From the NCBI GenBank assembly GCA_002840275.1, contig PHAB01000011.1, forward strand, positions 25,886 through 89,885: a DNA stretch of 64,000 nucleotides. The letters run 5' to 3'. How positions within the stretch are numbered: the stretch's first letter is position 1; every line of letters starts with the position of its first letter. Below the pieces are notes generated by a model that did not search any database, was not told where the DNA came from, and saw only the letters and a program-made list of their open reading frames with translations. The translations under genes and the position numbers were made by a program. Shown here one piece after another: positions 1,692 to 52,277 of this stretch. Source of the stretch: Firmicutes bacterium HGW-Firmicutes-14 (GTDB lineage: Bacteria; Bacillota; Thermincolia; Thermincolales; UBA2595).

Positions 1692-3035
1692 ATGACAGGG
1701 AGTTACGGTGAATTGGCAGGCCAGGTGGTTGATAAGGCCCAAAAACTTGGGGCCGATCAGTCAGAGGCCTTTTTAATTAAATCAAAGGACCTGACCATCG
1801 ATGTCCGGGAAGGCCGGGTGGAGACCCTTAAGCTGGCGGAAGACCGGGGGTTGGGACTTCGTGTGTTTAGAAAAGGAAGGATCGGATTTGCCTATACTTC
1901 TGATTTAAGCGATACTGCCATAGATGAAATCATCAGACAGTCTCTGGCCAACTCGGAAAAGACCAGTCCTGATGAGTTCAATATCATGCCTGAACCGGTG
2001 GGCAAATATGCCCAACTGGACCTTCTGGACCCGGAAATCAAAAGGATTTCCACTGACCGGAAAATAGAGATTGCTAAATTGATCGAAAAAACAGCCAGGG
2101 ATTTTGATAAGAGGATAGCTATTACAGAGAGGGCATCATATTTTGATGCTGAATATGAGGTTATCCTGGCAAACTCCCTGGGGGTCTCTGCCGGGTACCA
2201 GGGCGCCTATTGCGGGTGTTATGCCGATGTGGTGGCAGAAGAAAACGGGGATAACCAGACAGGGTTTGAATTAAAGATGACCCTTAATTTCAAGGACCTG
2301 GATCCCGAAAGAATCGGCCGGGCAGCGGCTGAAAAGGCGGTGAGGAAACTGGGGGCCGGTACGATAGGTACCCAGAAGGCGGTTGTGGTATTTGATCCCT
2401 ATATCGCCACCAGCTTCTTGGGAGTGATGGCACCGGCTCTGTCAGCTGAATCAGTGCAGAAAGGGAAATCTCTGTTTGCCGGGAAGGTGGGCAGGAAAGT
2501 TGCTTCAGATAAGGTTACCGTGGTGGATTACGGTTCAATGCCGGGAGGAATAGCTTCAGCTCCTTTTGACGGGGAAGGAGTGCCTACTTCTAAGACTGTC
2601 CTGATAAAGGACGGGGAACTGAAAGGGTATTTACACAATAATTATACGGCGGCAAAAGATAACGTAACATCCACCGGCAACGGGGTTAGGAGTTCTTTTA
2701 AGAGCGCACCGGAGGTTGGGACCACCAATTTCTATATTGAACCCGGAACTATAAGTCCTGATGACCTGGTCAAAGATATTGGGACAGGATTGTATATAAC
2801 AGATGTCATGGGTATGCATACGGCAAACCCTATTTCAGGGGATTTTTCCGTAGGGGCGGCCGGGATCTGGATAGAAAACGGCGGGTTTACAAAACCGGTA
2901 CGTGGTGTTGCCATTGCCGGAAATATTCTTGAACTGCTGAATGAGGTGGAAGGAGTCGGCTCAGACCTGACATTTTTTGGCAGCAAGGGGGCTCCTACCC
3001 TAAGGATTTCGAGAATGGTGGTCAGTGGGTCTTAA
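1692..3035 (+). CDS. pmbA: TldD/PmbA family metallopeptidase
   Basis: 447 aa. PmbA-like N-terminus (...ADQSEAFLIKSKDLTIDVREGRVETLK...GLGLRVF.KGRIGFAYTSDLS) and C-terminal GDFSVGAAGIWIENG motif. Confidence 0.85.
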   Translation: MTGSYGELAGQVVDKAQKLGADQSEAFLIKSKDLTIDVREGRVETLKLAEDRGLGLRVFRKGRIGFAYTSDLSDTAIDEIIRQSLANSEKTSPDEFNIMPEPVGKYAQLDLLDPEIKRISTDRKIEIAKLIEKTARDFDKRIAITERASYFDAEYEVILANSLGVSAGYQGAYCGCYADVVAEENGDNQTGFELKMTLNFKDLDPERIGRAAAEKAVRKLGAGTIGTQKAVVVFDPYIATSFLGVMAPALSAESVQKGKSLFAGKVGRKVASDKVTVVDYGSMPGGIASAPFDGEGVPTSKTVLIKDGELKGYLHNNYTAAKDNVTSTGNGVRSSFKSAPEVGTTNFYIEPGTISPDDLVKDIGTGLYITDVMGMHTANPISGDFSVGAAGIWIENGGFTKPVRGVAIAGNILELLNEVEGVGSDLTFFGSKGAPTLRISRMVVSGS

Positions 3036-3120
3036 TGATGATACAGTAGAAAACACTATTCAAATAAAAAAAATTGTGTTAAAATTTCAGAGTGGAATAT
3101 CATGACTTGGAGTGATAATT

Positions 3121-3576
3121 TTGGTAAAAATTCTGGTGGTTAACGGACCTAACCTAAATCTGCTGGGGACGAGGGAACCTGAGATATATGGTTCTATGGG
3201 CCTGGATGAGATAAACCGGCAGGTGGACGGGCTGGCCGGCCGGCTGGGACTCGAGCCGGAGTTTTTTCAGTCCAACCATGAGGGTGAAATCATAGACCGG
3301 ATCCAGGGATGTGGTTCTGAATGTAAAGGCATTCTTATCAATCCCGGGGCTTTTACCCATTACAGTTATGCCATAAGGGACGCGATTGCATCAATTGGAC
3401 TGCCTTGTGTGGAGGTACACCTGTCCAATATCCATGCCAGGGAAGAATTCAGAAAACAATCTGTTATTGCTCCTGTCTGTCTGGGTCAGGTTTCGGGTTT
3501 TGGCAGGCAGAGCTACCTGCTGGGTCTCCGGGCCTTAGCTGATAAGCTGAATAGCCGGGGTATTTCTGATGAATAA
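3121..3576 (+). CDS. aroQ: Type II 3-dehydroquinate dehydratase
   Basis: [23 protein letters not shown]...[16 protein letters not shown]...[15 protein letters not shown]. Start chosen at TTG 3121 after GGAGTGA; the ORF track starts at 3112. Confidence 0.92.
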
Positions 3577-35921: not shown

Positions 35922-36193
35922 CTCCCGTATTTAGTAGAATGCAAAAAACAGATAAAGACCCAGATGCTGAAAGACAGTTCATACTTTTAATTCAACACTT
36001 ATCTGAAAATTCCTGCCATCATATTTACTACGAAAGTAATAATTTTACTTTGCCTTATTACTATTCTATATTCCCTAGTATATCAGGCAGGAATGTTCCC
36101 TTTGCACAGTGAATAATATATTGGTTTAATATTTTTATAAATTTTTTGGGTGATCCTTTAGTTTTTAGCGGAAAGGACGATAGGAACGGTCTA

Positions 36194-37408
36194 ATGAAAA
36201 TTATCTCTGTCAGTGATTTAAACGGGTATATCAAACAAAAAATTGATTCCGACATGTTTCTTAGAAACATATGGGTCAGGGGAGAGATTTCAAATTTTAA
36301 ACACCATTCCTCAGGGCATATGTATTTTACCCTAAAGGACAAGTCAGGTGCAATCAGGTGTGTAATGTTCAGGAGCAAAAACGGCAGCCTGCCCTTTCCG
36401 CCGAGGGATGGAATGGCTGTAATTGCCAGGGGTTATGTCACCGTTTATGAAAGAGACGGTCAGTACCAGCTTTATGTTGAGGAAATGCATCAACAGGGTA
36501 TCGGCGCCCTTTATGTTGCTTTTTTACAGTTGAAAGAGAAGCTGGAGAAGGAAGGTTTGTTTGACAGGGACCGGAAGAAGCCACTGCCGGCTTTTCCCGG
36601 GAAGATTGGGGTTGTTACTTCTCCCACGGGTGCGGCGGTCAGGGATATTATAAACGTAATTACCCGCAGGTTCCCCCAGGTTCAGATTGTTCTTATCCCG
36701 GTGGCTGTGCAGGGGGATGAGGCTCCCCGCCAGATAGCGGAAGGCATAAAGACAGCAAATTCCCTTGGAGGACTGGATGTGCTTATCGTGGGCAGGGGAG
36801 GGGGTTCTATTGAGGAACTCTGGGCCTTTAATACTGAAATAGTTGCCAGGGGCATAGCCGGAAGTCTTATCCCGGTAGTTTCGGCAGTAGGCCACGAAAC
36901 CGATTTCACCATTGCTGATTTTGTTGCTGATATGAGGGCCCCGACACCGTCTGCGGCTGCAGAAATGGTTGTGCCGGACTGTAACGAACTGATGAAAACC
37001 CTGGTCAGCCTGCAGCAGAGAATGGCTGCCGGAATGAACAACAGCCTGACATCTCTCCACTTAAGGTTGGCCAGGGCTGTTGAAAGTCCGGTGATGACCC
37101 GGCCCATGGACGGGATATACAGAAAAATGCAGGACCTGGATTACCTGGTCAGAAGACTGCATCAGACTGCTGTAATATACTTAAACAACAGGCAAAACAG
37201 CTTATCCCTGCAAATATCCCGGCTGGATGACCTCAGTCCCCTGGCTACACTGAAACGTGGTTACAGTTTATGTCTCGATGATGGCGGAAAGGTGATCAGG
37301 AATGTATCCCGGGTAAGTCCGGGGGATAAAGTTGAAATAGTAATACATGACGGTGTGATCGATTGTACTGTGGAAAGAGTAAAGGAGGGCGAGTATGGCA
37401 AAAAATAA
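36194..37408 (+). CDS. xseA: Exodeoxyribonuclease VII large subunit
   Basis: MKIISVSDLNGYIKQKIDSD..L.NIWVRGEISNFK.HSSGHMYFTLKD... Confidence 0.93.
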   Translation: MKIISVSDLNGYIKQKIDSDMFLRNIWVRGEISNFKHHSSGHMYFTLKDKSGAIRCVMFRSKNGSLPFPPRDGMAVIARGYVTVYERDGQYQLYVEEMHQQGIGALYVAFLQLKEKLEKEGLFDRDRKKPLPAFPGKIGVVTSPTGAAVRDIINVITRRFPQVQIVLIPVAVQGDEAPRQIAEGIKTANSLGGLDVLIVGRGGGSIEELWAFNTEIVARGIAGSLIPVVSAVGHETDFTIADFVADMRAPTPSAAAEMVVPDCNELMKTLVSLQQRMAAGMNNSLTSLHLRLARAVESPVMTRPMDGIYRKMQDLDYLVRRLHQTAVIYLNNRQNSLSLQISRLDDLSPLATLKRGYSLCLDDGGKVIRNVSRVSPGDKVEIVIHDGVIDCTVERVKEGEYGKK

Positions 37409-37652
37409 GGAAATGCAGGAACTAACTTTTGAGCAGGCACTAAACGAATTGGAATCCATCGTCAAACTGATGGAGGATGGGAACCTGGAACTTGATGATA
37501 CACTGAAAATGTTTGAAAAGGGTATTGTTTTGTCAAGGATATGTTCAGACAAGCTCAAAAAGGCGGAAAAAAAGATAAGTGTACTCATGGCTAATGAAAA
37601 CGGAGAAATGGTTTTACAGCCTGCAACCATCCCGGAGGAACAGGAAGTGTGA
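37395..37652 (+). CDS. xseB: Exodeoxyribonuclease VII small subunit
   Basis: ...LTFEQALNELESIVKLMEDGNLELDDTLKMFEKG. It overlaps the xseA end. Confidence 0.9.
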   Translation: MAKNKEMQELTFEQALNELESIVKLMEDGNLELDDTLKMFEKGIVLSRICSDKLKKAEKKISVLMANENGEMVLQPATIPEEQEV

Positions 37653-37660
37653 GGAACAGT

Positions 37661-38560
37661 ATGAATAAAGAAGACCTTAAAAGGGAAATAAATGATAAAG
37701 TCAGGTCAATAGACGAGGCTTTGGAAAAGTACCTTCCCGGGGGTGAAGAAATACCGTCTGAGATACACCGGTCGATGCGTTACAGCATTTTTGCCGGGGG
37801 AAAACGTCTCAGGCCGGTTCTTTGCCTTACAGCTGCCGAAGCTGTGGGAGGGGATTCATCCTCATTGCTTCCGGCTGCCTGTGCCCTTGAATTAATCCAT
37901 ACCTATTCTTTGATTCATGATGACCTGCCGGCTATGGATAATGATGACTTCCGGCGCGGAAAGCCGACTAATCACAAGGTTTACGGTGAAGCCATGGCCA
38001 TACTGACAGGCGATGCCTTGCTGACTATGGCATTTGGCCTGATTGCGGAATGCAGCACATCAGGGGATATAACACCGGAAACCGTAATCCGGGTCATCCG
38101 CGAAGTCTCCGCAGCTGCAGGTTCTCAGGGGATGATAGGCGGACAGGTTGTAGATATTCTGTCAGAAAACAAGTCTGTGGATCAGGATAGATTGAAATAT
38201 ATCCATGACCATAAGACAGGGGCGCTTTTTAAGGCATCCATCCGTACAGGAGCCTTATTGGGGCGTGGTTCCGAAGAACAGGTTGAGAGCCTTTCCATTT
38301 TCGCTGAGAACCTGGGACTTGCTTTTCAGATAACAGACGATATCCTGGATATAGAAGGGGAATTCCAGAAGATTGGCAAAACCCTGGGCAGTGATGAACG
38401 AAAACACAAATGTACCTATCCGGCTGTCTTCGGGTTGCAGGAATCCAAAGCCCTGGCAGGAAAAGCTGTTGAGCGGGCCTTATTGTCTCTGAGGGACTTT
38501 GACGGCAGAGCGGATGTTTTAAGATATATTGCTAAGTACTTACTGGATAGGGACAGATGA
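37661..38560 (+). CDS. ispA: Polyprenyl (farnesyl/geranyl) diphosphate synthase
   Basis: First and second Asp-rich motifs (LIHDDLPAMDNDDFRRG; FQITDDILD). Confidence 0.9.
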   Translation: MNKEDLKREINDKVRSIDEALEKYLPGGEEIPSEIHRSMRYSIFAGGKRLRPVLCLTAAEAVGGDSSSLLPAACALELIHTYSLIHDDLPAMDNDDFRRGKPTNHKVYGEAMAILTGDALLTMAFGLIAECSTSGDITPETVIRVIREVSAAAGSQGMIGGQVVDILSENKSVDQDRLKYIHDHKTGALFKASIRTGALLGRGSEEQVESLSIFAENLGLAFQITDDILDIEGEFQKIGKTLGSDERKHKCTYPAVFGLQESKALAGKAVERALLSLRDFDGRADVLRYIAKYLLDRDR

Positions 38561-38593: not shown

Positions 38594-39055
38594 ATGTCTG
38601 GAGGACTTTATTTGAATAAAGCCCTTGATCAATTTCTGAATAATTCTATCCTGACAGCAGCAGTTTTATCATGGGTTTTGGCACAGCTGATTAAATTCTT
38701 CATTAGCATGATAAGGGATAGAAAAGTTGATTTTATCCTTTTGACCAAAAGTGGCGGAATGCCCAGCGGTCATGCTGCCCTTGTAACGGCCTCTGCCTTG
38801 GGAATAGGCAGGAAAATCGGATTTGATTCAGGTGAGTTTGCCCTTGCCTCGGTGATTGCTTTTATCGTTATGTATGATGCGGCTGGGGTCAGACAGGCCG
38901 TGGGAATCCAGGCTCAAATCTTAAATGAACTCATTCATGACATCTATCACGGTACAGGCATAAAACCCGTGAAAATAAAAGAAATACTCGGACATACCCC
39001 CATCGAGGTACTGGCGGGTTCTTTTTTAGGCATAGTAATAGCGCTGCTGTTTTAG
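38594..39055 (+). CDS. Divergent PAP2 / DUF212 family membrane protein
   Basis: ...SGGMPSGHAALVTA... and ...YDAAGVR...G with several TM segments. Confidence 0.8.
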   Translation: MSGGLYLNKALDQFLNNSILTAAVLSWVLAQLIKFFISMIRDRKVDFILLTKSGGMPSGHAALVTASALGIGRKIGFDSGEFALASVIAFIVMYDAAGVRQAVGIQAQILNELIHDIYHGTGIKPVKIKEILGHTPIEVLAGSFLGIVIALLF

Positions 39056-39066
39056 AAAAGGAGTAA

Positions 39067-39095
39067 TTGAACATTAATATATATTATGATATAAT
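39067..39095 (+). promoter_or_regulatory. Candidate sigma-A promoter upstream of OLE RNA
   Basis: TTGAAC (39067-39072), 17-nt spacer, TATAAT (39090-39095). Confidence 0.4.
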
Positions 39096-39147
39096 TACTT
39101 TCACAATTTGATAAAGTAATTTTAATCAAATGTGTATCAGTATCCTG

Positions 39148-39758
39148 GTAGGTGGCGCAGTATCCTAGTCAGGACCGGCACTTTGAGGGCGGGCCTAAAA
39201 ATCCGTCAAAGGGCATATCGATGAAGTTCCTGGTTCCGGCTGCTGACGCCCAGTTGGGGGTCGGTTCTGGGAGTAAGGGGGAAGGGCGATCTACAATGGC
39301 ATGTAGGCGTGGACCCAGCCCCCGTGGAGGCCCGGAAGCTGTAGTACAAGATAGTGGGAATTACCTTATACTACGATTCGGGATAAACCTGCCTAAGATG
39401 TTTTATTTTATATAATTCGTCAGAAGCAGTGTAGCCTGCCTTGAGTGGTGCTGGTGGATTATGGGTTACCGGGGTACCGGATGCGGGCCCGCGTCCGGCA
39501 ACTCCGCTATTTGAAACCACCACTGCAAAAGAGGCTAGAAGTATCCCGGTACTGTTGAGGAAAACTCCTAGGCTGTTTAGGTTAAACCTAAGACATGATG
39601 GGGATTAAAGTGTGGACTAAGTGGTAATCCAGCCCCGTATTCGGTGACGGTACGGATTCATCATAAAGGGAAACCGCCGGCACGGTAACGTGGCGGTGAT
39701 GATTGGGAAAACCAGCTGGACCTAAGCTACAACATTTACTCATCATGTTGCCACCTAC
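39148..39758 (+). ncRNA. ole: OLE (ornate, large, extremophilic) RNA
   Basis: A tract of about 611 nt with no credible ORF lies exactly at the ispA-side / oapA / dxs position typical of OLE. It is closed by a long-range helix, GTAGGTGGC (39148-39156) with GCCACCTAC (39750-39758). There are many internal GC-rich helices (e.g. CCGGATGCGGGCCCGCGTCCGG, CCGCCGGCACGGTAACGTGGCGG). Confidence 0.8.
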
Positions 39759-39785
39759 TGTTACATTTACATGAGGTGAAACTAT

Positions 39786-40379
39786 TTGGGAAACAATAAG
39801 CCTGGCTCTCTTAAATTTGCAGTTTTTACAGGAGCCGGCGCGTTTTTAGTGGCTGTTTTTTTTAGTATATTTTCTGAAATATTGTTGCCAAAACTGCAAA
39901 TACTTATACTATCTTTTTTTGTTTTACTCCTGGTTATTTTTATTGGGATAATATTTGACATGATTGGGGTTGCCGCAGCTGTTGCAGATGAACGGGCGTT
40001 TCATGCAAAAGCCTCTAAGAAGCTTAAGGGAGCAAGTCACTCCCTGTTTCTGATAAAACATGCTGACAAGGTGGCAACTTTTTGTAATGATGTGGTGGGG
40101 GATATATGTGGAACTGTCAGCGGCGCCTTTGGAGTGGCCATAGGTCTCCAGGTGGTTACCGGTAAGCCTGACTGGAATGAAAGTATCCTTACCATGATAA
40201 TGACCGGACTCGTTGCTTCATTGACCGTGGGCGGGAAAGCTGCGGGGAAGAAGACCGCTATGGATGATTCTGAACAAATTATTTATGCCGTTGGCAGAAT
40301 AATCGCCTGGTTTGAATCAGTGACAGGGATACGGATTATTGGCGGCGGCCAGCGTAAGGGCAAGGATAGAAGAAGGTGA
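39786..40379 (+). CDS. oapA: OLE-associated membrane protein OapA
   Basis: 197-aa protein with four hydrophobic segments immediately downstream of the OLE-like RNA and upstream of dxs. TTG start. Confidence 0.75.
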
Positions 40380-42322
40380 ACAAAACAGTGGATACTCCAC
40401 TATTGGACAAGGTAAACGGCCCTTCAGACCTGAGGGGTTTTTCTATAAGCCACCTGCACAGACTGGCGGAAGAAATCAGGGCGTTTCTGATAGAATCGGT
40501 TTCCGGGACAGGAGGACATCTTGCCCCCAATTTGGGGGTTGTAGAACTGACTATTGCCCTGCACAGCGTTTTTAGCTGTCCCCATGACAAACTAATATGG
40601 GATGTGGGTCACCAGTCATATGTGCATAAGATCCTGACAGGAAGAAAGGAAGAGTTTTCAACCCTCAGACAATATGCCGGGTTGAGCGGTTTTCCCAAAA
40701 GGGCGGAGAGTAAATGTGACCCTTTTGATACAGGACACAGCAGTACATCCATATCAGCTGCCCTCGGAATGGCGCTGGCCCGGGACCTAAACGGAGAGGA
40801 TTATAATATAATCGCAGTAATAGGCGATGGGGCAATGACAGGCGGAATGGCTTTTGAAGCCCTCAACCACGCAGGTCATATGGGCAAAAACATGATTGTG
40901 GTGCTGAATGATAATGAGATGTCAATCTCTGAAAACGTAGGGGCCCTTGCCGGCTATTTAAGCCGGATGAGGACTGACCCGAAGTATTATAAACACAAGG
41001 AAGAAATGGAACTGATGTTAAAGAAGATTCCTTCCATCGGTCCGACGGTCGTCAAGGCTATTGAAAGGATAAAGGACAGTTTTAAGTACCTGGTGGTACC
41101 GGGAATGATTTTTGAGGAACTGGGGTTTACCTATCTGGGACCTATCAACGGGCATGACATAGCCCTTATGAAGACTGTTCTGGAGCGGGCAAAGAAGAGC
41201 CATGGCCCTATTATTGTGCACGTGGTTACACGGAAAGGCAAGGGTTATAAACCGGCTGAGGATAACCCCGACAAATTCCATGGTATCGGACCTTTCGACA
41301 TAGATTCCGGAAATGGGAAGGGAACTAAAAAAGCATCTTATACAGATGTTTTCGGCAGTACCCTCTGTGAAATAGCTGAACAAAATGAAAAGGTTGTTGC
41401 TATTTCAGCTGCCATGCCATCAGGGACGGGACTCACCAAGTTCCAGGACCGGTTTCCAAAAAGGTTTTTTGACGTGGGAATAGCCGAGCAGCATGCAGTA
41501 ACAATGGCTGCCGGGTTATCTGTAAATGGATATATTCCTGTTGTGGCTATTTATTCCACTTTTCTGCAGAGGGCTTATGACCAGATTCTTCATGATGTCT
41601 CCTTACAGGGCCTGCACGTCATTTTTGCCATTGACCGGGCCGGGTTGGTTGGTGAAGACGGGGAAACACACCAGGGAGTGTTTGATGTTTCTTATTTGAG
41701 GCATATTCCCGGCATGACGGTGATGGCCCCAAAGGATGAAAACGAATTGCGCCTGATGCTTAAGGCGGCAGTTGAAGCGAAAGGCCCCGTGGCTGTCAGA
41801 TATCCCCGGGGAGCCGGTATGGGAGTACCCTTAACAGATATTGATTGTCCTGATAACAAATTACCGAGGGGTGCAGATCTGTTGAGGGAGGGTTCCGATA
41901 TTACCATAGCTGCCATAGGGCCTCTTGTTTATACAGCTCTTGAGGCCGCAGAATCACTTCACGAAGAGGGGATTTGTGCTGCTGTAATAAACGCCAGGTA
42001 TATTAAACCACTTGATGAAGAATGTCTTATAGAAAACATTTTGAAGACCGGAAGCCTGCTGACCGTTGAAGAGAATGTCCTGCAAGGTGGGTTTGGAAGC
42101 GCGGTTCTTGAGATGCTGAACCGAAAAGGAATAAATATACAGGTGAAATGTATGGGAATTGCCGATGAGTTTGTCAGTCACGGCACCCCTGACATTTTAA
42201 GGCAGAAATACGGTTTGACAAGTCAGGGTATAATTTCACATGTAAGGGAAATGTTATCAGGGGAGGACGAGCCGAAAAAGCTCAGAAAAACTGCGCGGAT
42301 TAAGGTTTTGACTAAGCCTTAG
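40376..42322 (+). CDS. dxs: 1-deoxy-D-xylulose-5-phosphate synthase
   Basis: ...[18 protein letters not shown]....[18 protein letters not shown]... and [15 protein letters not shown]. Confidence 0.97.
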
Positions 42323-42380
42323 GAAATAAGTCCTGGGAAATAAGTCTGGGAAACGGTCAATCTTGCGGAAGGTGTCATAT

Positions 42381-43193
42381 ATGGCTAATAAAAAGCGTTT
42401 AGATGTGATGTTAGTAGAAAAAGGCCTTTTCCCTTCGCGGGAAAAGGCCAAATCTGCGATTATGGCAGGTTTGATTAATATTGACGGCAGGCTTGTTGAT
42501 AAGGCAGGTACAGAAATCAGTGTTGATTCACAGATTGAAGTTACCGGTCCGGCCAATCCGTATGTAAGCCGGGGCGGTTTGAAACTGAAAAAGGCGCTGG
42601 ATGAATTCGGAATCAGCCTGGCGGGGAAAGTTGTGGCAGATATCGGAGCATCAACGGGCGGCTTCACTGACTGTGTCCTTCAGCATGGAGCTGTAAAGGT
42701 ATACGCTATAGATGTCGGGTATGGCCAGTTGGACTGGAAACTGAGACAGGACCCGCGGGTTGTTAATTTGGAACGGACCAATATCAGGTATTTTGACCCC
42801 GGACTGCTTAATGAAACCCCAGACCTGGTTACCGTTGATGTTGCTTTTATTTCCCTGGAAAAAGTGCTGCCCAAAATCAGTGAGATACTTGAGCCGGGAG
42901 GACTACTGGTAACCTTGATAAAGCCCCAGTTCGAAGCGGGGCGTCAACAGGTTGGCAAAAAGGGGGTTGTCCGGGATCCGGACATACATATAGAGGTCAT
43001 TGACAGGATAATAGCTTTTGCCGCAGGCTGTGGCATTGATACTGTACATCTTACATATTCCCCCATCAAGGGACCGGAAGGTAATATCGAATACCTGGCC
43101 CTGATGAGAAGAAGTGAAGGGATTACACAAAAGCCTGTTCCCGGGGAAAACCTCATCCGCTCCGTGGTTTCCGCTGCCTTTTGTGAATTGTGA
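42381..43193 (+). CDS. tlyA: TlyA family rRNA (cytidine-2'-O)-methyltransferase
   Basis: MANKKRLDVMLVEKGLF.SREKAK..IMAG S4 domain, followed by the FtsJ-like DIGASTGGFTD motif. Confidence 0.9.
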   Translation: MANKKRLDVMLVEKGLFPSREKAKSAIMAGLINIDGRLVDKAGTEISVDSQIEVTGPANPYVSRGGLKLKKALDEFGISLAGKVVADIGASTGGFTDCVLQHGAVKVYAIDVGYGQLDWKLRQDPRVVNLERTNIRYFDPGLLNETPDLVTVDVAFISLEKVLPKISEILEPGGLLVTLIKPQFEAGRQQVGKKGVVRDPDIHIEVIDRIIAFAAGCGIDTVHLTYSPIKGPEGNIEYLALMRRSEGITQKPVPGENLIRSVVSAAFCEL

Positions 43194-43414: not shown

Positions 43415-45136
43415 GTGTGGCTGTTGGAGTCAAGATTTAAAATTAGTGATATTACTCTTAAAATATTATTGGGTTATCTGGGTGTGGTTATTATGCTTAC
43501 TTTTATAATGATTGTGGCAGACACCAACATGGCCCGTACCCAGCAGGCCATTGATGTCAGCACCACGAAATTTATGCCCCAGCTTAACATCGCCGGTGAT
43601 ATAAAGTCAATAGTCCAGGAACAACAGGTTCTCGTCCGTGACTTTACCGCCGGCAACAAAAACATAAAACAGAAATACAGGGAACTGGACAGGCTCTTCC
43701 TGGCCAAAATCAAGCAATTTGAAGAGTATACCTGGGATGGGGACACGGATTCGGTCTCCCTGCAGACCATGTACAGGGTTAAAAGAGAACACGACAACTT
43801 TAATTTGGTGGCCAACCATATTTTCAAGTACGAGGAGGCCGAAAGGGACAGCCTTGTTGATACCCTTTGGCAAAATTATAAACTGGCCGGAAATAAGATG
43901 ATTGAATCGGCAAATCAATTGGTAATGGATTCCAACTCCAGGGCGCAGGATGCCCAGGCCAGGAGCAGGGATATCCTTACAACTTCCCGGCGGATTATGT
44001 ATTCTATTGCTTTTGTTGCTATCTCCGCATGTTTTACCCTGACCTTTATTACCTCCAAAAACATTACTACTCCTCTGAGCAGACTGGTCCGGGTTTCCAG
44101 GGATATTGCCGGGGGAGACCTAACCAAAAGAATCGAGGATAATTCTATAGGTGAATTCAGTGAACTGGCAAAATCTTTTAATACGATGGTTGACAATCTG
44201 CAGGCCATAATTGAACGGATTGCCGGTTGGAGCCGGGAAATAGCATCTTCCAGTGAGGCTTTTGAATCTCATACCCAGCAGAGCGCTGCAGCATATGACA
44301 CCATCAATGCATCCATTGAGGAGGTATCTTCCGGGGCCAGACAGCAGGCTGATGGGATTAAAGACCTGCAGGCTTCTGCCGAAACTGCCATGAGTGCAAT
44401 TAATAATATAACCCAGAGCATCCAAATGATTGACCGGACTTCAGCATCTGCTGCCGAAATGGCCAGGGAAGGCGGAGATTCTCTCAGAGCTGCAATCAAA
44501 CAGATGAGACAGATAGAACAAAAAGTAGACCAGCTTTCCCTGGATGTAAAGTCCCTGGTTGACGATGTCAATAAGATTTCAGGTATTATAGATATGATTT
44601 CGGGTTTTGCTAAGCAGACTAACCTGCTGGCCTTAAATGCGGCCATAGAGGCTGCCCGGGCCGGTGAACAGGGTAAGGGTTTTGCTGTAGTTGCCGAGCA
44701 GGTTCGCAAGCTCGCCTCCGGGTCGGGTCAATTAGTTGAAAAAATCCGGCAGATTATCGCCCAGATTCAAAAGAGGTCTCAGGAGGCTGTGATCTCCATG
44801 GACGAAGGGCGTCAAGTTGTAGCAGACGGTACGGTTGTTATAAATGAGACCGGGAAAACACTTACAGAAATTATTGAAATGGTCCAGACAGCTTCTGCCC
44901 AGACCCGTGAAGTGGCCAACAGTACTAAGCAGATTACCAGCAGCAGTGAATATATGATTCATGAGATTTTTGAAAATGTAACGATATCAAAACAAACTGT
45001 TAAAACATCTGACGAGATGCTTGACCTGGTAGCTTCTCAATCCCGTGCCGTAAACGAATTATTTGAAGCTGCCAATAACTTGTCCAAGATGACACACCAG
45101 CTTGAAGAAGCTGTTTCAAACTTCAAGACAAAATAA
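43415..45136 (+). CDS. Methyl-accepting chemotaxis protein
   Basis: Two TM segments, HAMP (...ITTPLSRLVRVSRDIAGGDLTKRI...), and the highly conserved signalling hairpin (...FAKQTNLLALNAAIEAARAGEQGKGFAVVAEQVRKLA...). Confidence 0.9.
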   Translation: MWLLESRFKISDITLKILLGYLGVVIMLTFIMIVADTNMARTQQAIDVSTTKFMPQLNIAGDIKSIVQEQQVLVRDFTAGNKNIKQKYRELDRLFLAKIKQFEEYTWDGDTDSVSLQTMYRVKREHDNFNLVANHIFKYEEAERDSLVDTLWQNYKLAGNKMIESANQLVMDSNSRAQDAQARSRDILTTSRRIMYSIAFVAISACFTLTFITSKNITTPLSRLVRVSRDIAGGDLTKRIEDNSIGEFSELAKSFNTMVDNLQAIIERIAGWSREIASSSEAFESHTQQSAAAYDTINASIEEVSSGARQQADGIKDLQASAETAMSAINNITQSIQMIDRTSASAAEMAREGGDSLRAAIKQMRQIEQKVDQLSLDVKSLVDDVNKISGIIDMISGFAKQTNLLALNAAIEAARAGEQGKGFAVVAEQVRKLASGSGQLVEKIRQIIAQIQKRSQEAVISMDEGRQVVADGTVVINETGKTLTEIIEMVQTASAQTREVANSTKQITSSSEYMIHEIFENVTISKQTVKTSDEMLDLVASQSRAVNELFEAANNLSKMTHQLEEAVSNFKTK

Positions 45137-45164
45137 CCCCGGAAGAATTGGAGGGTGAAATATT

Positions 45165-46103
45165 ATGATGCTGACAAAAAAATGGATTACAGCCGTACTG
45201 TTAGGCTTGATGGTGACAGTGCTGTTTACCGGTTGCCGGGACTCCGCTCCGGAAATGGGGGAACGAAAGAAGGTAACTGAAGCACAGGTTAAGGCTTTTC
45301 AGGCTCAAAAGGAGCAAAAAATGGTTGATATATATGTGCCTATTAAGGAACAGTATGAGACCAGCGGGCACTCTGAATCCCTTAAAACTCTGAGGGAATA
45401 CCAGGGTACTATAGAGCCAAGATGTTATTCTTGTATGTCAGCGGAATATTTTCTCGCCCCCCCGGAACAGAAACCTGAACCTGCAGCAATTAGCCATTCC
45501 ATAACATGTGCAGTATGCCATGAAATGACACTGTCTGAATTTAAACTCAGACTGGAACCACTGGAAACCTGTACTACCTGCCATAACAACGGGGGTGACA
45601 TTGTCGCCGGACAACAGGTCCATCACCCGCAGAAAGAGATGTTTCTGGGATATGGCGCTATCGGGGTCCCCAACACACCTGATACAAAGTACAGTTCCGG
45701 ACTGACCTGTATTGAATGTCACATGCCTAATGAAGCCCACACCTTTAAGGGCAAGACTCCTGCCGATGCTCTTAAGGAGCATACGGAAAGCATTTGTGTC
45801 ATGTGCCATGCGGACAGATCTGAAGAACAGTTTGCCAAGGAAGTTGCCAAAATGCAGTCACAAATTGAAAAAAGCTGTGATTCAATCGAGAAAAGCCTAA
45901 AGCTGTCAGAGCAAAAGATGAGGACTTTTGGACAACAGGGAAGAGATGTTACGAAAGCCTGGGAAGTTTACAATGTTGTTTATACCAATCTGTCTTTTGT
46001 GGTTTCTGACGGGAGCAAGGGCATACATAATTTTGGGTATGCCACCAAGATTACCGAGTATACGGAAAAACGGAACCGCGAGCTCGAGGAACTGCTCAAA
46101 TAA
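45165..46103 (+). CDS. Multihaem c-type cytochrome lipoprotein (4 CxxCH plus an NrfA-like CxxCM)
   Basis: Lipobox LFTGC. Haem motifs CAVCH, CTTCH, CIECH, CVMCH. CYSCMSAEY (C87-M91) resembles the NrfA CWSCKSPD active-site motif. Confidence 0.8.
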   Translation: MMLTKKWITAVLLGLMVTVLFTGCRDSAPEMGERKKVTEAQVKAFQAQKEQKMVDIYVPIKEQYETSGHSESLKTLREYQGTIEPRCYSCMSAEYFLAPPEQKPEPAAISHSITCAVCHEMTLSEFKLRLEPLETCTTCHNNGGDIVAGQQVHHPQKEMFLGYGAIGVPNTPDTKYSSGLTCIECHMPNEAHTFKGKTPADALKEHTESICVMCHADRSEEQFAKEVAKMQSQIEKSCDSIEKSLKLSEQKMRTFGQQGRDVTKAWEVYNVVYTNLSFVVSDGSKGIHNFGYATKITEYTEKRNRELEELLK

Positions 46104-46129
46104 AACATAATTTTTGCACCTAAATATAA

Positions 46130-46300
46130 GGAGTGGCAGATATGTTCCGGAAGAACGAGTCTGACATCCGCTTGTCCAACATGGCAGCTCTTGGCGCTTT
46201 AGCGCCTAGAGCTGGCGGTACCCTTGGGGTAGAGCGCGCAAGCGCGATTGGGTAACAAGCTGAGTTGTAGCCGTTCTGGAGGAACGTATCTGCCACTCCC
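46130..46300 (+). repeat. Hairpin-element family, copy 2 (most complete reference copy)
   Basis: The closing stem is GGAGTGGCAGATA with TATCTGCCACTCC. The core motifs are at 46153-46170 and 46250-46276. An apical hairpin with a GCGC-TTTA-GCGC tip is present, plus an extra GC-rich branch at 46215-46249. Confidence 0.8.
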
Positions 46301-46331
46301 TTGTATTTATGACAAAAATTATGGAATGTCT

Positions 46332-46844
46332 TTAGATGCTTATTTTCATTTCAGTTGGAAACTTGACCGGAATCTCGTGACTTTTGTTATCTGCATAGAT
46401 CAGGCTATCGGGGATTGTGCCTTTTTTAAGTTCAAATATCAGCAGTCCGCCTCCCCGGTAATCGGGAGGAAGGGTGACTTCTTTAAAGGCAGCCTTACTG
46501 GTTATGGTTTGTGTCAATTCAGGGGAATACTTATATTCAGTTCCGTCTGTCATTTTTAATGTGACAAATTCAGGGGAAATTGGCACATTATCTTTCGTAT
46601 TGTTGTCGACTGCTACCTGAATGCTCACAACTTCGTAACCGTCTTTACCACTGATGTTCATTCCTGATAAAGAACGGATCTCCCGGCTTATTGACAGCGC
46701 CAGTCCATTATCTTCTGCCGTAAGGTGGGCGGTGTCAGGTTGTTCAGGCGGTGGCTCAGGGGCCGAACCCTGCTGTTTTGTTTTTGAACAGCCAATAAAT
46801 GCAGTCAATGAAATGATTATGACCAATATCAAAAATTTTTTCAT
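46332..46844 (-). CDS. Lipoprotein, DUF4352-like
   Basis: Signal peptide and lipobox MKKFLILVIIISLTAFIGC, followed by a beta-rich domain of about 130 aa. Confidence 0.7.
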   Translation of the reverse strand: MKKFLILVIIISLTAFIGCSKTKQQGSAPEPPPEQPDTAHLTAEDNGLALSISREIRSLSGMNISGKDGYEVVSIQVAVDNNTKDNVPISPEFVTLKMTDGTEYKYSPELTQTITSKAAFKEVTLPPDYRGGGLLIFELKKGTIPDSLIYADNKSHEIPVKFPTEMKISI

Positions 46845-47008: not shown

Positions 47009-47866
47009 ATGGATTCCATCGGACTTATTATAAATTACGAAAAAACCGAAGCCCGGGTCATTACTAAGCAGATTGTTGACTGGCTGAAAAAGCACGGCAA
47101 AAAGGTCATGATTGCCGGGGTTAGTTCAGAAGTTGCCGGCAGCGGGGTCATCACATGTGCCGAGGCTGACCTGGCCAAAGAAGCTGAATGTATAATCGTC
47201 CTTGGCGGTGATGGTACGCTTCTTAACTCTGCCAGGGCGATAGCCGGCTGCGGGATACCTCTCTTTGGCGTTAATCTGGGGCAGCTGGGTTTTCTGACAG
47301 AAATAGAGCAGCCAGACCTTGCCCCGGCTATGAAACAGCTTATTTCCGGCGATTATCAGATTGAAGAACGGATGATGATTGAAGCGTCAGTGATTAGAAA
47401 AGGTGAGGAGATTAGCAGGTTTTGCGGCCTGAATGATGCTGTGGTGACTAAGGGCGCATTTGCCAGGCTGATAAGGCTGAAGACTTTTGTAAATAATGAA
47501 TTTGTTGACATTTATCCTGCAGATGGGCTCATTATTTCCACTCCCACCGGTTCAACGGCATATTCACTGTCGGCGGGAGGACCGCTGGTGGTCCCTGACC
47601 TCGAACTGATGATAGTTACCCCAATCTGCCCTCATACTTTATATGCCCGGCCTATTGTCATAAATAATAACAGTGTCGTCCGGGTCGAACTTCAGGCCAC
47701 CCAGGCTGAAGTCATGCTGACTATTGACGGGCAGAGCGGTTTTCCCCTAAAACCTTTTGACGAGGTGATTATCAAAAAAGCACCGTTCTGTGCCAGGTTC
47801 ATGAAACTTAACCAAAGGAGTTTTTTTGAAATCCTGAGAACCAAGCTAAAAGAAGGGGACACATAG
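47009..47866 (+). CDS. nadK: NAD kinase
   Basis: ...IIVLGGDGTLL..AR.....IP..GVNLG.LGFL.E... and ...DG.I.STPTGSTAYSLSAGGP. Confidence 0.93.
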   Translation: MDSIGLIINYEKTEARVITKQIVDWLKKHGKKVMIAGVSSEVAGSGVITCAEADLAKEAECIIVLGGDGTLLNSARAIAGCGIPLFGVNLGQLGFLTEIEQPDLAPAMKQLISGDYQIEERMMIEASVIRKGEEISRFCGLNDAVVTKGAFARLIRLKTFVNNEFVDIYPADGLIISTPTGSTAYSLSAGGPLVVPDLELMIVTPICPHTLYARPIVINNNSVVRVELQATQAEVMLTIDGQSGFPLKPFDEVIIKKAPFCARFMKLNQRSFFEILRTKLKEGDT

Positions 47867-47869
47867 AAG

Positions 47870-48490
47870 ATGTTTGGCATATTGGCAAACATAGTGGAAA
47901 TTGCTCACAATTATATCAACATAAACCTTAAACCAGGCGGAGTAGCTGTGGATGCCACTGTCGGCAATGGCAAAGACACTCTTTTTCTGGCCCGAAGGGT
48001 CGGCAAATCCGGACGGGTATACGGCTTTGATATCCAGCGGCAGGCTGTCGAAACAACCGCTGAGCTTTTAGCCCTCCATGGATATGTAGATAATGTCAAA
48101 CTGTTTAATGAAAGTCATGAACTGGTCCGGAAAAAAATTCCGGAACCGGTTGATACGGTCGTTTTTAATCTGGGGTACCTTCCGGGCGGGGACCATGGCA
48201 TTGTTACCCGGGCTGAATCAACGGTCAGGGCTGTGGAAGACTGTCTGGAAATATTAAAACCGGGAGGATTAATCTGCCTGGTTGTATATACCGGACATCC
48301 CGGCGGGCAGAAAGAACAGCTCCGCCTGGAAACCTTGCTGCAGGGACTTGATAAAAGGAATTTTTGTGTGGCAAAAATTAATTATATAAATCGGGAAAGG
48401 GCGCCTTATCTTCTGATAATTGAAAAGAGCGCCCGGAAAACCGCTGGGGGGATTACCTGTGAAAACCGGGAGACACCGGAAAATAATTGA
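47870..48490 (+). CDS. Class I SAM-dependent methyltransferase (YtqB/MnmM-like)
   Basis: ...VAVDATVGNGKDTLFLARRVG..G.VYGFDIQ..A...T resembles the YtqB family. Confidence 0.75.
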   Translation: MFGILANIVEIAHNYININLKPGGVAVDATVGNGKDTLFLARRVGKSGRVYGFDIQRQAVETTAELLALHGYVDNVKLFNESHELVRKKIPEPVDTVVFNLGYLPGGDHGIVTRAESTVRAVEDCLEILKPGGLICLVVYTGHPGGQKEQLRLETLLQGLDKRNFCVAKINYINRERAPYLLIIEKSARKTAGGITCENRETPENN

Positions 48491-48911
48491 GATAATTGAG
48501 CGCATGAGAATAGAAACCCAGGAGGAACTGGCCGAGGAGCTTAAACGGGAGGGATTTGACGTTACCCAGGCCACGGTCTCCCGGGATATAAAGGAACTGC
48601 GCCTGGTAAAGGTCGCTGCCGGAAACGACCGGTACCGGTATGCATTACCGGGTGAGCGGCTGATGGGGAAGAACCCGCAAAAGTCCATGCGGGTATTCAG
48701 GGACTCTGTTATTGGCCTGGATTCCAGTGAAAACATCATTGTGGTCAGGACAACTCCGGGTGCTGCCCAGGCAGCAGCCCTGGTCATAGACAATGAAGGA
48801 TGGGAAGAAATTATCGGGACCGTTGCCGGAGATGACACGGTTCTGGTGGTAGTTAAACCCAAATCTGCCGTTGCCAAAGTGATGGACCGGTTTAAATCTT
48901 TTTTGACTTGA
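48459..48911 (+). CDS. argR: Arginine repressor
   Basis: VKTGRHRKIIEIIE....ETQEEL...L...GF.VTQATVSRDIKEL.LVKV... and ...GTVAGDDT.LVV. GTG 48459 chosen; the ORF track starts at 48420. Confidence 0.9.
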   Translation: MKTGRHRKIIEIIERMRIETQEELAEELKREGFDVTQATVSRDIKELRLVKVAAGNDRYRYALPGERLMGKNPQKSMRVFRDSVIGLDSSENIIVVRTTPGAAQAAALVIDNEGWEEIIGTVAGDDTVLVVVKPKSAVAKVMDRFKSFLT

Positions 48912-48921
48912 GGTGAATGAA

Positions 48922-50619
48922 TTGCTGGAAAAGCTGTTCATCCGGAACTTTGCCATAATTGACCGGCTGGAAATCGACCTGCCGAAGGGATTTACAGTCC
49001 TTACAGGAGAAACAGGCGCCGGAAAATCGATAATTATCGATGCTGTAACGGTAGTTACCGGCGGGCAGGGTTTAACGGAATTTATCAGAAGCGGAGAGGA
49101 AAAGGCAGTTGTAGAAGCTGTTTTTGATATTGGAGTAAACGCCAAGGCAAAAAAGATTCTGGAAGAATACGGATTGCTCCCTGAAGAAGGAGATTCCCTT
49201 ATACTTACCAGGGAAATTGTTAAAACCGGAAAAAATCTTTGCCGGGTCAACGGAAGGCAGGTCAACCTTTCAGTACTAAAAGATATTGCCAAAACCCTTG
49301 TTGATATCTACGGCCAGCATCATCAGCAGTCCCTTCTTGATCCCCTTAAACATATTGAACTACTGGATGATTATGGCGGAGATCAGATGCGGGGACTCAG
49401 GAAGAAACTGTCGTCTGCTTACAGGGACATTGCCGCATTGGAAGCCAGAATCAGGGAAATGGAGGCCGATGAAAAGGAACGGGTCAGAAAGATTGATATA
49501 TATAAGTACCAGCTGGAAGAGATAGACGGCATAGGCCCCGTGGAGGGAGAAGATTCTTCCTTGGAGGAGGAGAAGAATATTCTGGCCAATGCCGAAAGAC
49601 TTTCTGTTCTTTATAATACTGCCTATGAACTGTTATACGAGGGTGGACGGCAAAAAGCTGTCACTGACTTGCTTCACGAGGCGGCCAGCAACCTTAAAGA
49701 GGCGTGTTCGGTGGACCCTGCAGCCGGTCCTCTGACTGAAACCGTTGAATCAGCCCTGTATCAGTTAGAAGAAGTTGCAAGAGACATTAGAAAACGATGC
49801 AGCAGCCTTGAAACTGACCCCCTTAAGCTGGACGAAGTGGAAAACAGGTTAGCCCTGATAAGGCAGTTGAAGAAAAAATATGGAGATACAATAAACGAAA
49901 TCCTGAAATACCGGGAAGAGGTAGCATCATCCCTTATTGTTCTGGATAATTTTGATGAAGAGCTGAGCAGGACAAAAAAATTTATGGAGGAAGCCAAAAA
50001 ACATTATGACAGTATAGCAGGCGAGACATCCTCCCAGAGAAGGAAGACGGCTGATACTATCAGGGAACTGATAACACGGGAACTGATTGAACTGAATATG
50101 CCTCATGTTACGTTTGATATCAGTATAACATCCGGAAACCGGCCGACTGAAAACGGGTATGATGAAGTGGAATTTTTAATATCCCCAAATCTGGGAGAAC
50201 CTCTCAAACCTCTGGCGAAGATTGTTTCCGGAGGCGAAGTGTCCCGCATTATGCTTGCTTTTAAAAAAATCCTGGCCAAAATTGACTCGGTATTTACCCT
50301 GATTTTTGATGAAGTTGATGCCGGGATAGGAGGTAACGCCATTCAGGCGGTGGCTCAAAAGCTTTCATCAATTGGGACTGACCGGCAGGTTATTTGTGTG
50401 ACCCATTCGCCACAGATTGCAGCCCGGGCTGATAACCATTTTATTATTACCAAGGAAACCGGTGAATCAAGGACTTTTACCAAAATATACGGCCTGTCTC
50501 CGGAGGAAAGGATTGATGAAATTGCCAGGATGCTGGGTGGTGGTAAGATTACTGCTGTTACCCGGAAACACGCCGAGGAAATTTTAAAAGAAAAAGATAC
50601 TCTAAACTTATTGTTCTAA
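48922..50619 (+). CDS. recN: DNA repair protein RecN
   Basis: (M)LEKLFIRNFAIIDRLEIDL.KGFTVLTGETGAGKSIIIDA... TTG 48922 gives the canonical ML..L.I.NFA N-terminus; the ORF track starts at 48913. Confidence 0.95.
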   Translation: MLEKLFIRNFAIIDRLEIDLPKGFTVLTGETGAGKSIIIDAVTVVTGGQGLTEFIRSGEEKAVVEAVFDIGVNAKAKKILEEYGLLPEEGDSLILTREIVKTGKNLCRVNGRQVNLSVLKDIAKTLVDIYGQHHQQSLLDPLKHIELLDDYGGDQMRGLRKKLSSAYRDIAALEARIREMEADEKERVRKIDIYKYQLEEIDGIGPVEGEDSSLEEEKNILANAERLSVLYNTAYELLYEGGRQKAVTDLLHEAASNLKEACSVDPAAGPLTETVESALYQLEEVARDIRKRCSSLETDPLKLDEVENRLALIRQLKKKYGDTINEILKYREEVASSLIVLDNFDEELSRTKKFMEEAKKHYDSIAGETSSQRRKTADTIRELITRELIELNMPHVTFDISITSGNRPTENGYDEVEFLISPNLGEPLKPLAKIVSGGEVSRIMLAFKKILAKIDSVFTLIFDEVDAGIGGNAIQAVAQKLSSIGTDRQVICVTHSPQIAARADNHFIITKETGESRTFTKIYGLSPEERIDEIARMLGGGKITAVTRKHAEEILKEKDTLNLLF

Positions 50620-50942: not shown

Positions 50943-52277
50943 GTGTCTGATCAAATGCGACGAAAAGCCTTTGGTTTGTTTTTGTCCCTATTGATAATTG
51001 TCGGAACACTCAACCCACAGGCCCGGAGTTTTTTTTCACTCCCTACTAACCAGCGGGTTTCAGTCGGTGACCATATCAGACTAGAATTAAATTTTTCTGA
51101 ATGGCTGTTAAGCCAGTTCAGTGTCTATGTTAATTCCAATTCAAGACAAGTCCTGCTTCTAAACGGGACTGATGCCAGCGGCAAGGCCTTTAGTTTTCTG
51201 GAAGGCTGGCCTGTAGCCACATCCCCGGGAAAAGCTAATATACAGATCAGACTCTTTGGCATATTTCCCATAAAAAATGTCAGAGTCGAAGTCTTGCCCC
51301 AGACCAGGTTGGTCCCGGGAGGTCAATCGGTAGGTGTGCTTCTTCATTCAGAAGGAGTCATTGTCGTCGGACAGTCTATAGTTGAGGACAAACAGGGTCA
51401 TAGATTTAACCCGGCCAGAGAGGCAGGTATTGAAGTAGGAGATGTGATCATGACAATAAACGGTCAGGCGGTTAAGAGTGATGAACAGGTAGCCAGGATA
51501 ATTAACGAATCCGGTAAAAACGGAAAAAAAGTCAAAGTCCTGGTAAAACGCAATAAAACTACTTTTCAAACTCATATACAACCGATACTATGTAAAGAAA
51601 CCGGAAGATACCGGGTGGGATTGTATATCAGAGACAGTGCGGCAGGAGTTGGCACCCTGTCTTTCTACAATCCCAAAACAGGGAAATACGGGGCTTTGGG
51701 ACATGTGATAACAGATTCCGATACAAACAAGCCTATTGATGTCAGTGACGGCAAGATAGTACGTGCATCTATACAGGGAATCCAGGCCGGGCAGAGTGGA
51801 CAGCCGGGCGAAAAAGTAGGTATGTTCATAAGTGATGCCGGTTTTTCAGGAAGTATTGAGAAAAATACCAAGTTCGGTATTTATGGAACCCTGAAAAATG
51901 ACTTAAGTAATCCTTATTACCGGGAGCCGGTGCCAATTGCGCTTCCGGACCAGGTTAAAATAGGACCGGCTGAAATGCTTACTGTACTGGATGGTGAAAA
52001 AATCGAAAAATTCGCAGTTGAAATCATAAAAGTCCTTCCTCAGTCTGTGCCGGACAGTAAAGGCCTGATTGTAGAGGTGACTGACCCCAGGTTATTGAAA
52101 AGAACCGGGGGGATTATTCAGGGCATGAGCGGCAGTCCTCTGCTCCAGGATGGCAGGATTGTCGGCGCCGTGACCCATGTTTTTATCAATGACCCGACCC
52201 GGGGTTATGGGTGTCTGATAGAATGGATGCTCATGGAATCCAATGATGCCAAGGGTTTACAGCAAAAAGCAAGTTAA
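50943..52277 (+). CDS. spoIVB: SpoIVB peptidase (S55)
   Basis: TM anchor, PDZ (...GIEVGDVIMTINGQ.V...), and S55 catalytic region (...YGALGH.I.D.DT... and ...IIQGMSGSP...G...GAVTHVF). Confidence 0.9.
   Translation: MSDQMRRKAFGLFLSLLIIVGTLNPQARSFFSLPTNQRVSVGDHIRLELNFSEWLLSQFSVYVNSNSRQVLLLNGTDASGKAFSFLEGWPVATSPGKANIQIRLFGIFPIKNVRVEVLPQTRLVPGGQSVGVLLHSEGVIVVGQSIVEDKQGHRFNPAREAGIEVGDVIMTINGQAVKSDEQVARIINESGKNGKKVKVLVKRNKTTFQTHIQPILCKETGRYRVGLYIRDSAAGVGTLSFYNPKTGKYGALGHVITDSDTNKPIDVSDGKIVRASIQGIQAGQSGQPGEKVGMFISDAGFSGSIEKNTKFGIYGTLKNDLSNPYYREPVPIALPDQVKIGPAEMLTVLDGEKIEKFAVEIIKVLPQSVPDSKGLIVEVTDPRLLKRTGGIIQGMSGSPLLQDGRIVGAVTHVFINDPTRGYGCLIEWMLMESNDAKGLQQKAS

Follow-up and report, generated by a model that had tools for sequence, protein, structure and literature searches.

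Which gene, if any, occupies the stretch of about 0.6 kb that separates a DUF212 gene from a small membrane-protein gene and dxs in the genome of a groundwater bacterium of the Bacillota, and are the partners that such a gene would need encoded by the same genome? In a preliminary description of the 64-kb window (the whole stretch of DNA that was analysed, 64,000 nucleotides), the tract 39148–39758 was read as an OLE (ornate, large, extremophilic) RNA, closed by a long-range helix, followed by its partner gene oapA, and embedded in an xseAB-ispA-dxs-tlyA-nadK-argR-recN operon. OLE RNAs are among the largest structured bacterial RNAs of still-unknown biochemistry, and in the model species their mechanism is known at the level of assembly and phenotype only. 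The features of the locus are collected in Table 1.

Table 1. Features of the OLE locus, in window coordinates
Feature	Position	Strand	Evidence
xseA	36146–37408	+	Pfam
xseB	37395–37652	+	Pfam
ispA-type polyprenyl synthetase	37649–38560	+	PF00348, E 1e-60
DUF212 / divergent PAP2 membrane protein (YuiD-type)	38594–39055	+	PF02681, E 4e-46
Sigma-70-type promoter-like site, TTGAAC-17-TATAAT, TG before −10	39067–39095	+	10/12 consensus matches
OLE RNA gene, full-length type	39136–39770	+	RF01071, 502.5 bits, model 1–616/616
Closing helix, 5′ strand (GUAGGUGGC)	39148–39156	+	Exact complement, pairs with 39750–39758; covariation in 30 sequences
First Rfam-annotated hairpin, loop CUAAAAAU (A5 at 39197–39201)	39188–39207	+	Aligned to model positions 54–73
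Putative k-turn 5′ segment CGAUGAAG, joining, before P5-type stem	39219–39226	+	Invariant columns, 30-sequence alignment
Putative k-turn partner segment CUGGGAGUAAGG	39267–39278	+	Invariant columns, 30-sequence alignment
Palindromic GGCC loop, stem 39480–39485/39490–39495	39486–39489	+	Aligned to model loop uGGCCa
P13-type hairpin: GUGA tetraloop 39644–39647, single bulged U 39640	39635–39655	+	Model positions 479–499, bulge column included
Second GNRA hairpin, GUAA at 39685–39688	39676–39697	+	Covariance-model alignment
Closing helix, 3′ strand (GCCACCUAC)	39750–39758	+	Exact complement; covariation; MFE fold
oapA, 197 aa, TTG start	39786–40379	+	Homology to literature OapA; Shine-Dalgarno GAGGTG 39773–39778
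dxs	40376–42322	+	PF13292, E 3e-126
tlyA-type FtsJ methyltransferase	42363–43193	+	Pfam
Methyl-accepting chemotaxis protein	43415–45136	+	Pfam
Multihaem cytochrome c	45165–46103	+	Pfam
DUF4352 gene	46332–46844	−	Pfam
nadK	47009–47866	+	Pfam
PF06962 rRNA methylase	47870–48490	+	Pfam
argR	48420–48911	+	Pfam
recN	48913–50619	+	Pfam
spoIVB	50943–52277	+	Pfam

Identity and Extent of the RNA

In a scan of the whole 64-kb window with Rfam 15 at the gathering threshold, the OLE family (RF01071) gave the sole match, at 39136–39770 on the forward strand, with a score of 502.5 bits (E = 2e-144) where the gathering cut-off is 50. The OLE identity, which the preliminary description had staked on a significant match to the covariance model, is therefore borne out, and the tract that it had delimited is contained in the match. 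The alignment runs over model positions 1–616 of 616 and is not truncated; positions 198–384, the P7–P9 region, are aligned, the insertions are at the level of loops only, and the score sits inside the range of 441–551 bits found in the relatives. The view of the tract as GC-rich and structured was also upheld, with a G+C content of 51% versus 46% for the window, and the minimum free energy (MFE) fold of the region has a z of −4.83 relative to dinucleotide shuffles, the terminal helix being present in this structure. One stem, at about 39386–39424, fits the model poorly, with non-canonical marks and an 11-nt A/U-rich insertion, in a region that the 30-sequence alignment shows to be variable among the relatives too. 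A single OLE copy is present in the 3.65-Mb, 67-contig genome. Membership of the RNA family is thus established, and window 39136–39770 almost certainly encodes a full-length OLE RNA.

The Closing Helix

The 9-bp long-range helix proposed for the ends of the tract consists of 39148–39156 (GTAGGTGGC) and its exact reverse complement at 39750–39758 (GCCACCTAC), and it can be extended by two G-U wobbles (39146–39147 with 39759–39760); a 9-bp end-to-end helix arises in 57 of 20,000 mononucleotide shuffles of the region. Covariation was tested in an ends-only MAFFT alignment of 30 OLE RNAs, in which a 13-pair helix was counted and compared with 500 shuffles; one row (L029) was set one column out of register by MAFFT and was kept so, which makes the pair counts slightly conservative. 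In this helix, 79% of the cells are paired versus 67.5% in the shuffles, changes on both sides are found in 12 of the 13 pairs, and the covariation score is 0.423 versus 0.207, a value reached by none of the 500 shuffles; when the register is slid, pairing falls to 34–58%. Most of the covariation signal is held by the nine core pairs (39148–39156/39750–39758), the innermost of which is CG in 18 rows and UA in nine, with another being UA in 15 and CG in eight. The helix, an exact complement that the MFE fold recovers, therefore holds up, and its covariation across the 30 OLE RNAs, established here, makes it a conserved feature of the OLE family.

Both OLE ends, the strands of the closing helix included, are unpaired in the Rfam structure line. 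Published stem numbering has the resolved OLE domain begin at P3, and the 5′ and 3′ ends of OLE are reported to make up a joint second domain (PMC12265935), so that the closing helix is probably the published P1 or P2.

Binding-Site and Dimer-Bridge Elements

The sequence features of the binding and dimerisation sites are kept in this copy, as is, at the sequence level, each OLE element with a described role, both in the Rfam alignment and in the 30-sequence MAFFT alignment. The hairpin at 39188–39207, whose CUAAAAAU loop columns are invariant in the 30 sequences, appears to be of the L4 loop type, an A-rich loop reported as the A–A dimer bridge B1 (PMC12286853), and is thus a putative bridge B1; likewise, the loop at 39486–39489 may be a kissing loop of the L9.3 type, the palindromic GGCC of which forms dimer bridge B3 (PMC12286853). 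The segments CGAUGAAG (39219–39226) and CUGGGAG (39267–39273) flank P5 and lie in columns invariant across the 30 sequences; a k-turn flanking P5 is bound by OapC in Halalkalibacterium halodurans (PMC9723947), and 39219–39226 together with 39267–39278 are its putative counterparts here. The primary OapB site requires a GNRA tetraloop and a bulge (PMC7936274), and the hairpin at 39635–39655 is predicted to be this site, with the second GNRA hairpin at the position of a weak secondary OapB site (PMC7936274).

The P6-type stem (39276–39282/39319–39325) reads GGGGG/CCCCC in this copy and GGAGG/CCUCC in most family members, a compensatory change common to a few relatives (L006, L010, L020, L034). 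This stem is described in the literature as a Shine-Dalgarno/anti-Shine-Dalgarno mimic bound by bS21; here, the mimic sequence is altered and the pairing is preserved.

Protein Partners of the RNA

The reading frame of oapA begins 16 nt past the OLE match, with a GAGGTG Shine-Dalgarno sequence 7 nt before the TTG start, and over 155 aa its product shares 41% identity (E 1e-28) with the OapA listed in the supplementary material of the cryo-EM study of OLE (PMC12286853). An oapA homologue directly follows OLE in 28 of the 30 loci of the relatives, and both the homology of oapA and its position directly after OLE, as first described, are thereby established. No Pfam model (E ≤ 0.001, CNNM included) or NCBIfam model matches the 197-aa protein, which is strongly hydrophobic at residues 7–69 approximately, with room for two spans, and at residues 103–125; a hydropathy scan gave three clear hydrophobic segments and a weaker fourth one below the threshold. 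OapA has been reported as weakly related to the CNNM membrane domain (PMC11332333), and the protein encoded here differs from the MpfA/CNNM Mg2+ exporters in its length of 197 aa and in having neither CBS nor CorC domains. The genome encodes one MpfA-type CNNM-CBS-CorC protein, and this single gene fits the published pattern, in which OLE carriers have at most one MpfA and MpfA anticorrelates with OLE (PMC11332333).

The genome search for oapB and oapC that had been suggested found both, and the presence of the two homologues is established. For OapB, the Pfam KOW model (PF00467) gave only two matches over the genome, taken as L24 and NusG from size and contig context, and left OapB undetected; a KOW-like regular expression over small open reading frames, followed by comparison with the PDB, retrieved a 102-aa candidate on contig C34 (G000:C34), whose best PDB match is 7k9b, OLE-associated protein B (E 3.5e-10, residues 7–94 versus 5–92, which is almost the entire protein). 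This OapB (YbzG) candidate carries the Gly-Arg dipeptide in GRDKG. Two L7Ae-family genes are present in the genome. One, located between rpoC and rpsL, is oapC (ybxF): its product is 48% identical to the literature OapC, and its best PDB matches are to Bacillus subtilis YbxF, with E 1e-16, as against only 0.0055 for YlxQ. The other is identified as YlxQ by its place in the order nusA-ylxR-X-infB. At this locus (L002, on G000:C7, positions 2–1195 and 1845–3269), the flanking genes nusA and infB carry low-complexity extensions: nusA has an extended acidic C terminus made of EGDYA-type repeats, and infB an N-terminal run of GARPEGRPQGTRPP repeats.

Gene Neighbourhood and the DUF212 Gene

The order xseA, xseB, ispA, DUF212, OLE, oapA, dxs, and tlyA was confirmed, and the genes and the order of the operon originally proposed are borne out as a whole; the single uninterrupted operon is not. 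The adjacency of tlyA and nadK failed, because approximately 3.8 kb with a chemoreceptor gene, a multihaem cytochrome gene, and a DUF4352 gene on the opposite strand lie between them, and an rRNA-methylase gene (47870–48490) falls between nadK and argR. The insert at 43415–46844 breaks the gene order usual around ole, and its cytochrome shows weak NrfA/NrfB-type heme-motif matches.

The DUF212/PAP2-like gene reported between ispA and OLE is indeed there, with a PF02681 match of E 4e-46 at 38594–39055, and it recurs immediately before OLE in 14 of the 30 loci of the relatives (loci with DUF212 adjoining ole are L008, L009, L012, L015–L017, L020, L021, L023, L024, L026, L029, and L030). Among 60 oapA-anchored loci, OLE is immediately preceded by ispA in 30 and by DUF212 in 13. 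No mention of DUF212 or yuiD together with OLE RNA was found in the searchable full-text literature, a scope outside which the neighbour list of a 2023 review lies. The DUF212 protein might be an unrecognised functional accessory of the OLE–OapA particle rather than a mere passenger of the isoprenoid cluster, for instance as a polyprenyl-phosphate phosphatase that could link the membrane ribonucleoprotein to the flanking ispA and dxs, an idea that is nevertheless considered unlikely.

Promoter and Transcription

The candidate TTGAAC-17-TATAAT site at 39067–39095 was found as described, with the TG of an extended −10 element; its −10 TATAAT at 39090–39095 implies a transcript start at about 39102–39105. 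In 18 of the 30 loci, the 160 nt preceding OLE contain a site that matches the consensus at 10 or more of 12 positions, in most cases with TATAAT unchanged and a spacer of 17 nt, and from this recurrence a proximal OLE promoter looks conserved among the relatives. On the forward strand, neither the DUF212–OLE gap nor the OLE–oapA gap contains a terminator-like site. Read-through from the upstream genes and co-transcription with oapA-dxs, which the lack of a terminator between OLE and oapA makes likely, are both possible from the sequence. In H. halodurans, the cluster is polycistronic and OLE is processed (PMC11332333, PMC12265935).

Contigs of relatives in two soil metatranscriptomes are 88–97% identical to this copy and cover only 39156–39723, with word depths of hundreds to thousands, which is suggestive of abundant OLE RNAs of relatives in the environment. 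Since only conserved RNA can recruit such contigs, they neither define the ends of the OLE RNA described here nor bear on its promoter. A search for RNA-seq runs of the organism itself gave none.

Distribution and Host

The host is represented by a groundwater metagenome-assembled genome (MAG), with Thermincola as its nearest named relatives, and it belongs to the Bacillota, in the anaerobic or extremophilic members of which OLE is typically found; 2,822 OLE matches in Bacillota species were obtained by an Infernal search of GTDB R214 (PMC11332333). The closest named OapA loci, at 69–72% identity, are those of Thermincola sp. and T. ferriacetica (MAGs). OLE is present in 33 of the 41 relatives sampled, including eight of 10 within the same family. 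Of 67 oapA-anchored loci whose flanks are long enough, 60 have OLE immediately before oapA, and dxs comes after oapA in 61 of 80 related loci. DNA of the window occurs in groundwater metagenomes. The groundwater sample from which the window derives (run X1) also contains a 717-nt contig with another, distinct OLE RNA, which points to at least one other OLE-bearing organism in the same habitat. Four oapA loci (L054, L055, L070, and L083) come from MAGs labelled Verrucomicrobiota, Betaproteobacteria, Victivallales, or Muribaculaceae, in agreement with the published remark that OLE matches outside the Bacillota probably stem from errors of binning or assembly or from horizontal transfer.

Comparison with Known OLE Systems

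This copy is like the full-length OLE RNAs studied in H. halodurans and Clostridium acetobutylicum in its end-to-end model match, in the immediate downstream position of oapA within an ispA/dxs neighbourhood, and in the L4 A-rich loop, the k-turn segments, the GGCC loop, and the P13 GUGA tetraloop with its bulge, and its host is like theirs in encoding OapB and OapC and in belonging to the Bacillota. The differences are not qualitative and concern lineage-level details only: AGUAAGG in place of AGUUAAGG after the P5-type stem, common to the whole family; the changed P6-type pairs (GGGGG/CCCCC versus GGAGG/CCUCC) and the A/U-rich insertion in the variable stem; and the DUF212 gene between ispA and ole, an arrangement seen in roughly a quarter to half of the loci. 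OLE variants 1 and 2 of the TANB77 and RF39 clades (Fernando and Breaker 2024) belong to the same RNA class and share the partnership with OapA; however, their P7–P9 stems are shortened or absent, the OapB site is often missing, and the hosts are mostly devoid of OapB and OapC (PMC11332333), whereas all model positions, the OapB site, and both proteins are present here. Within a well-catalogued RNA class, this is an ordinary full-length copy that comes with all the known partners.

Proposed Working and Alternative Readings

By homology to the systems of H. halodurans and C. acetobutylicum, the RNA would be transcribed from the promoter just upstream, by read-through from xseAB-ispA-DUF212, or both, and would fold into the conserved multi-helix architecture, its ends closed by the 39148–39156/39750–39758 helix. 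Dimerisation would involve the GGCC kissing loop together with the A-rich loop L4, and the protein tethering the RNA to the membrane would be OapA, whose gene starts 16 nt downstream, with OapB presumably binding the GUGA-plus-bulge hairpin at 39635–39655 and OapC (YbxF) the k-turn near 39219–39278. The resulting ribonucleoprotein may aid the cell in coping with such stresses as cold, excess Mg2+, short-chain alcohols, and poor carbon sources.

Other readings of the tract have to be weighed against that of a functional OLE RNA. An 87-codon frame with a GTG start does exist at 39152–39415, and it could be taken as a small protein gene to which the RNA match is incidental. This frame had been presented as the only one in the tract, which holds at a cut-off of about 60 aa; three others of 50–55 aa overlap. 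The implausible composition ascribed to it is confirmed: Gly, Pro, Ser, and Arg abound in its product, which is what translation of a structured RNA of high G+C content should give, and there is no NCBIfam match for the frame. Its start codon is part of the conserved GUGG of the RNA, and in the relatives the frame stops after 41, 53, 87, or 148 codons or fails to rank with the longest open reading frames, so that it is not a conserved reading frame. Conservation of the tract tracks base pairing and not codons, and a 502-bit OLE match is too strong to be incidental; with the frame not conserved and a match of that strength, the coding reading is rejected as refuted for practical purposes, the chance that it is correct being negligible.

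The poor pairing of the variable stem at about 39386–39424, with its A/U-rich insertion, might instead point to a decaying or non-functional relic of an OLE RNA. Nevertheless, the match is full-length and untruncated with a score within the range of the relatives, and the columns invariant in the 30 sequences are all intact, although by construction, as the alignment includes this copy. In addition, oapA is intact with its Shine-Dalgarno sequence and OapB and OapC are encoded, and defective ole genes have been reported mainly where oapA is missing (PMC11332333); decay was accordingly rejected as very improbable. The tract is immediately followed by oapA, no terminator-like site separates the two, and co-transcription is likely; this arrangement would also suit a cis-acting leader of the riboswitch or attenuator type for oapA-dxs in place of a stable trans-acting RNA. 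In the model species, however, RNAs of this family have been shown to be abundant and processed, to localise to the membrane, and to bind their own proteins (PMC12265935, PMC11332333); 635 nt with some 25 helices and dimer bridges are unlike any leader, and the forward strand showed neither an expression platform nor a terminator within 39136–39786. On these grounds a regulatory leader was rejected too, with next to no likelihood left to it, and a full-length OLE RNA is the reading retained.

Implications

Because gene callers miss OLE, labelling the gap correctly prevents a spurious open reading frame call at 39152–39415. For curators, two observations may be of use: the Rfam structure line lacks the covarying helix that joins the 5′ and 3′ ends, and ole often has a DUF212 gene immediately before it. 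How OLE is known to work is not affected by either, and the value of the finding lies mainly in correct annotation; to the family, this copy adds a groundwater example from the Thermincola lineage with a complete set of OapA, OapB, and OapC.
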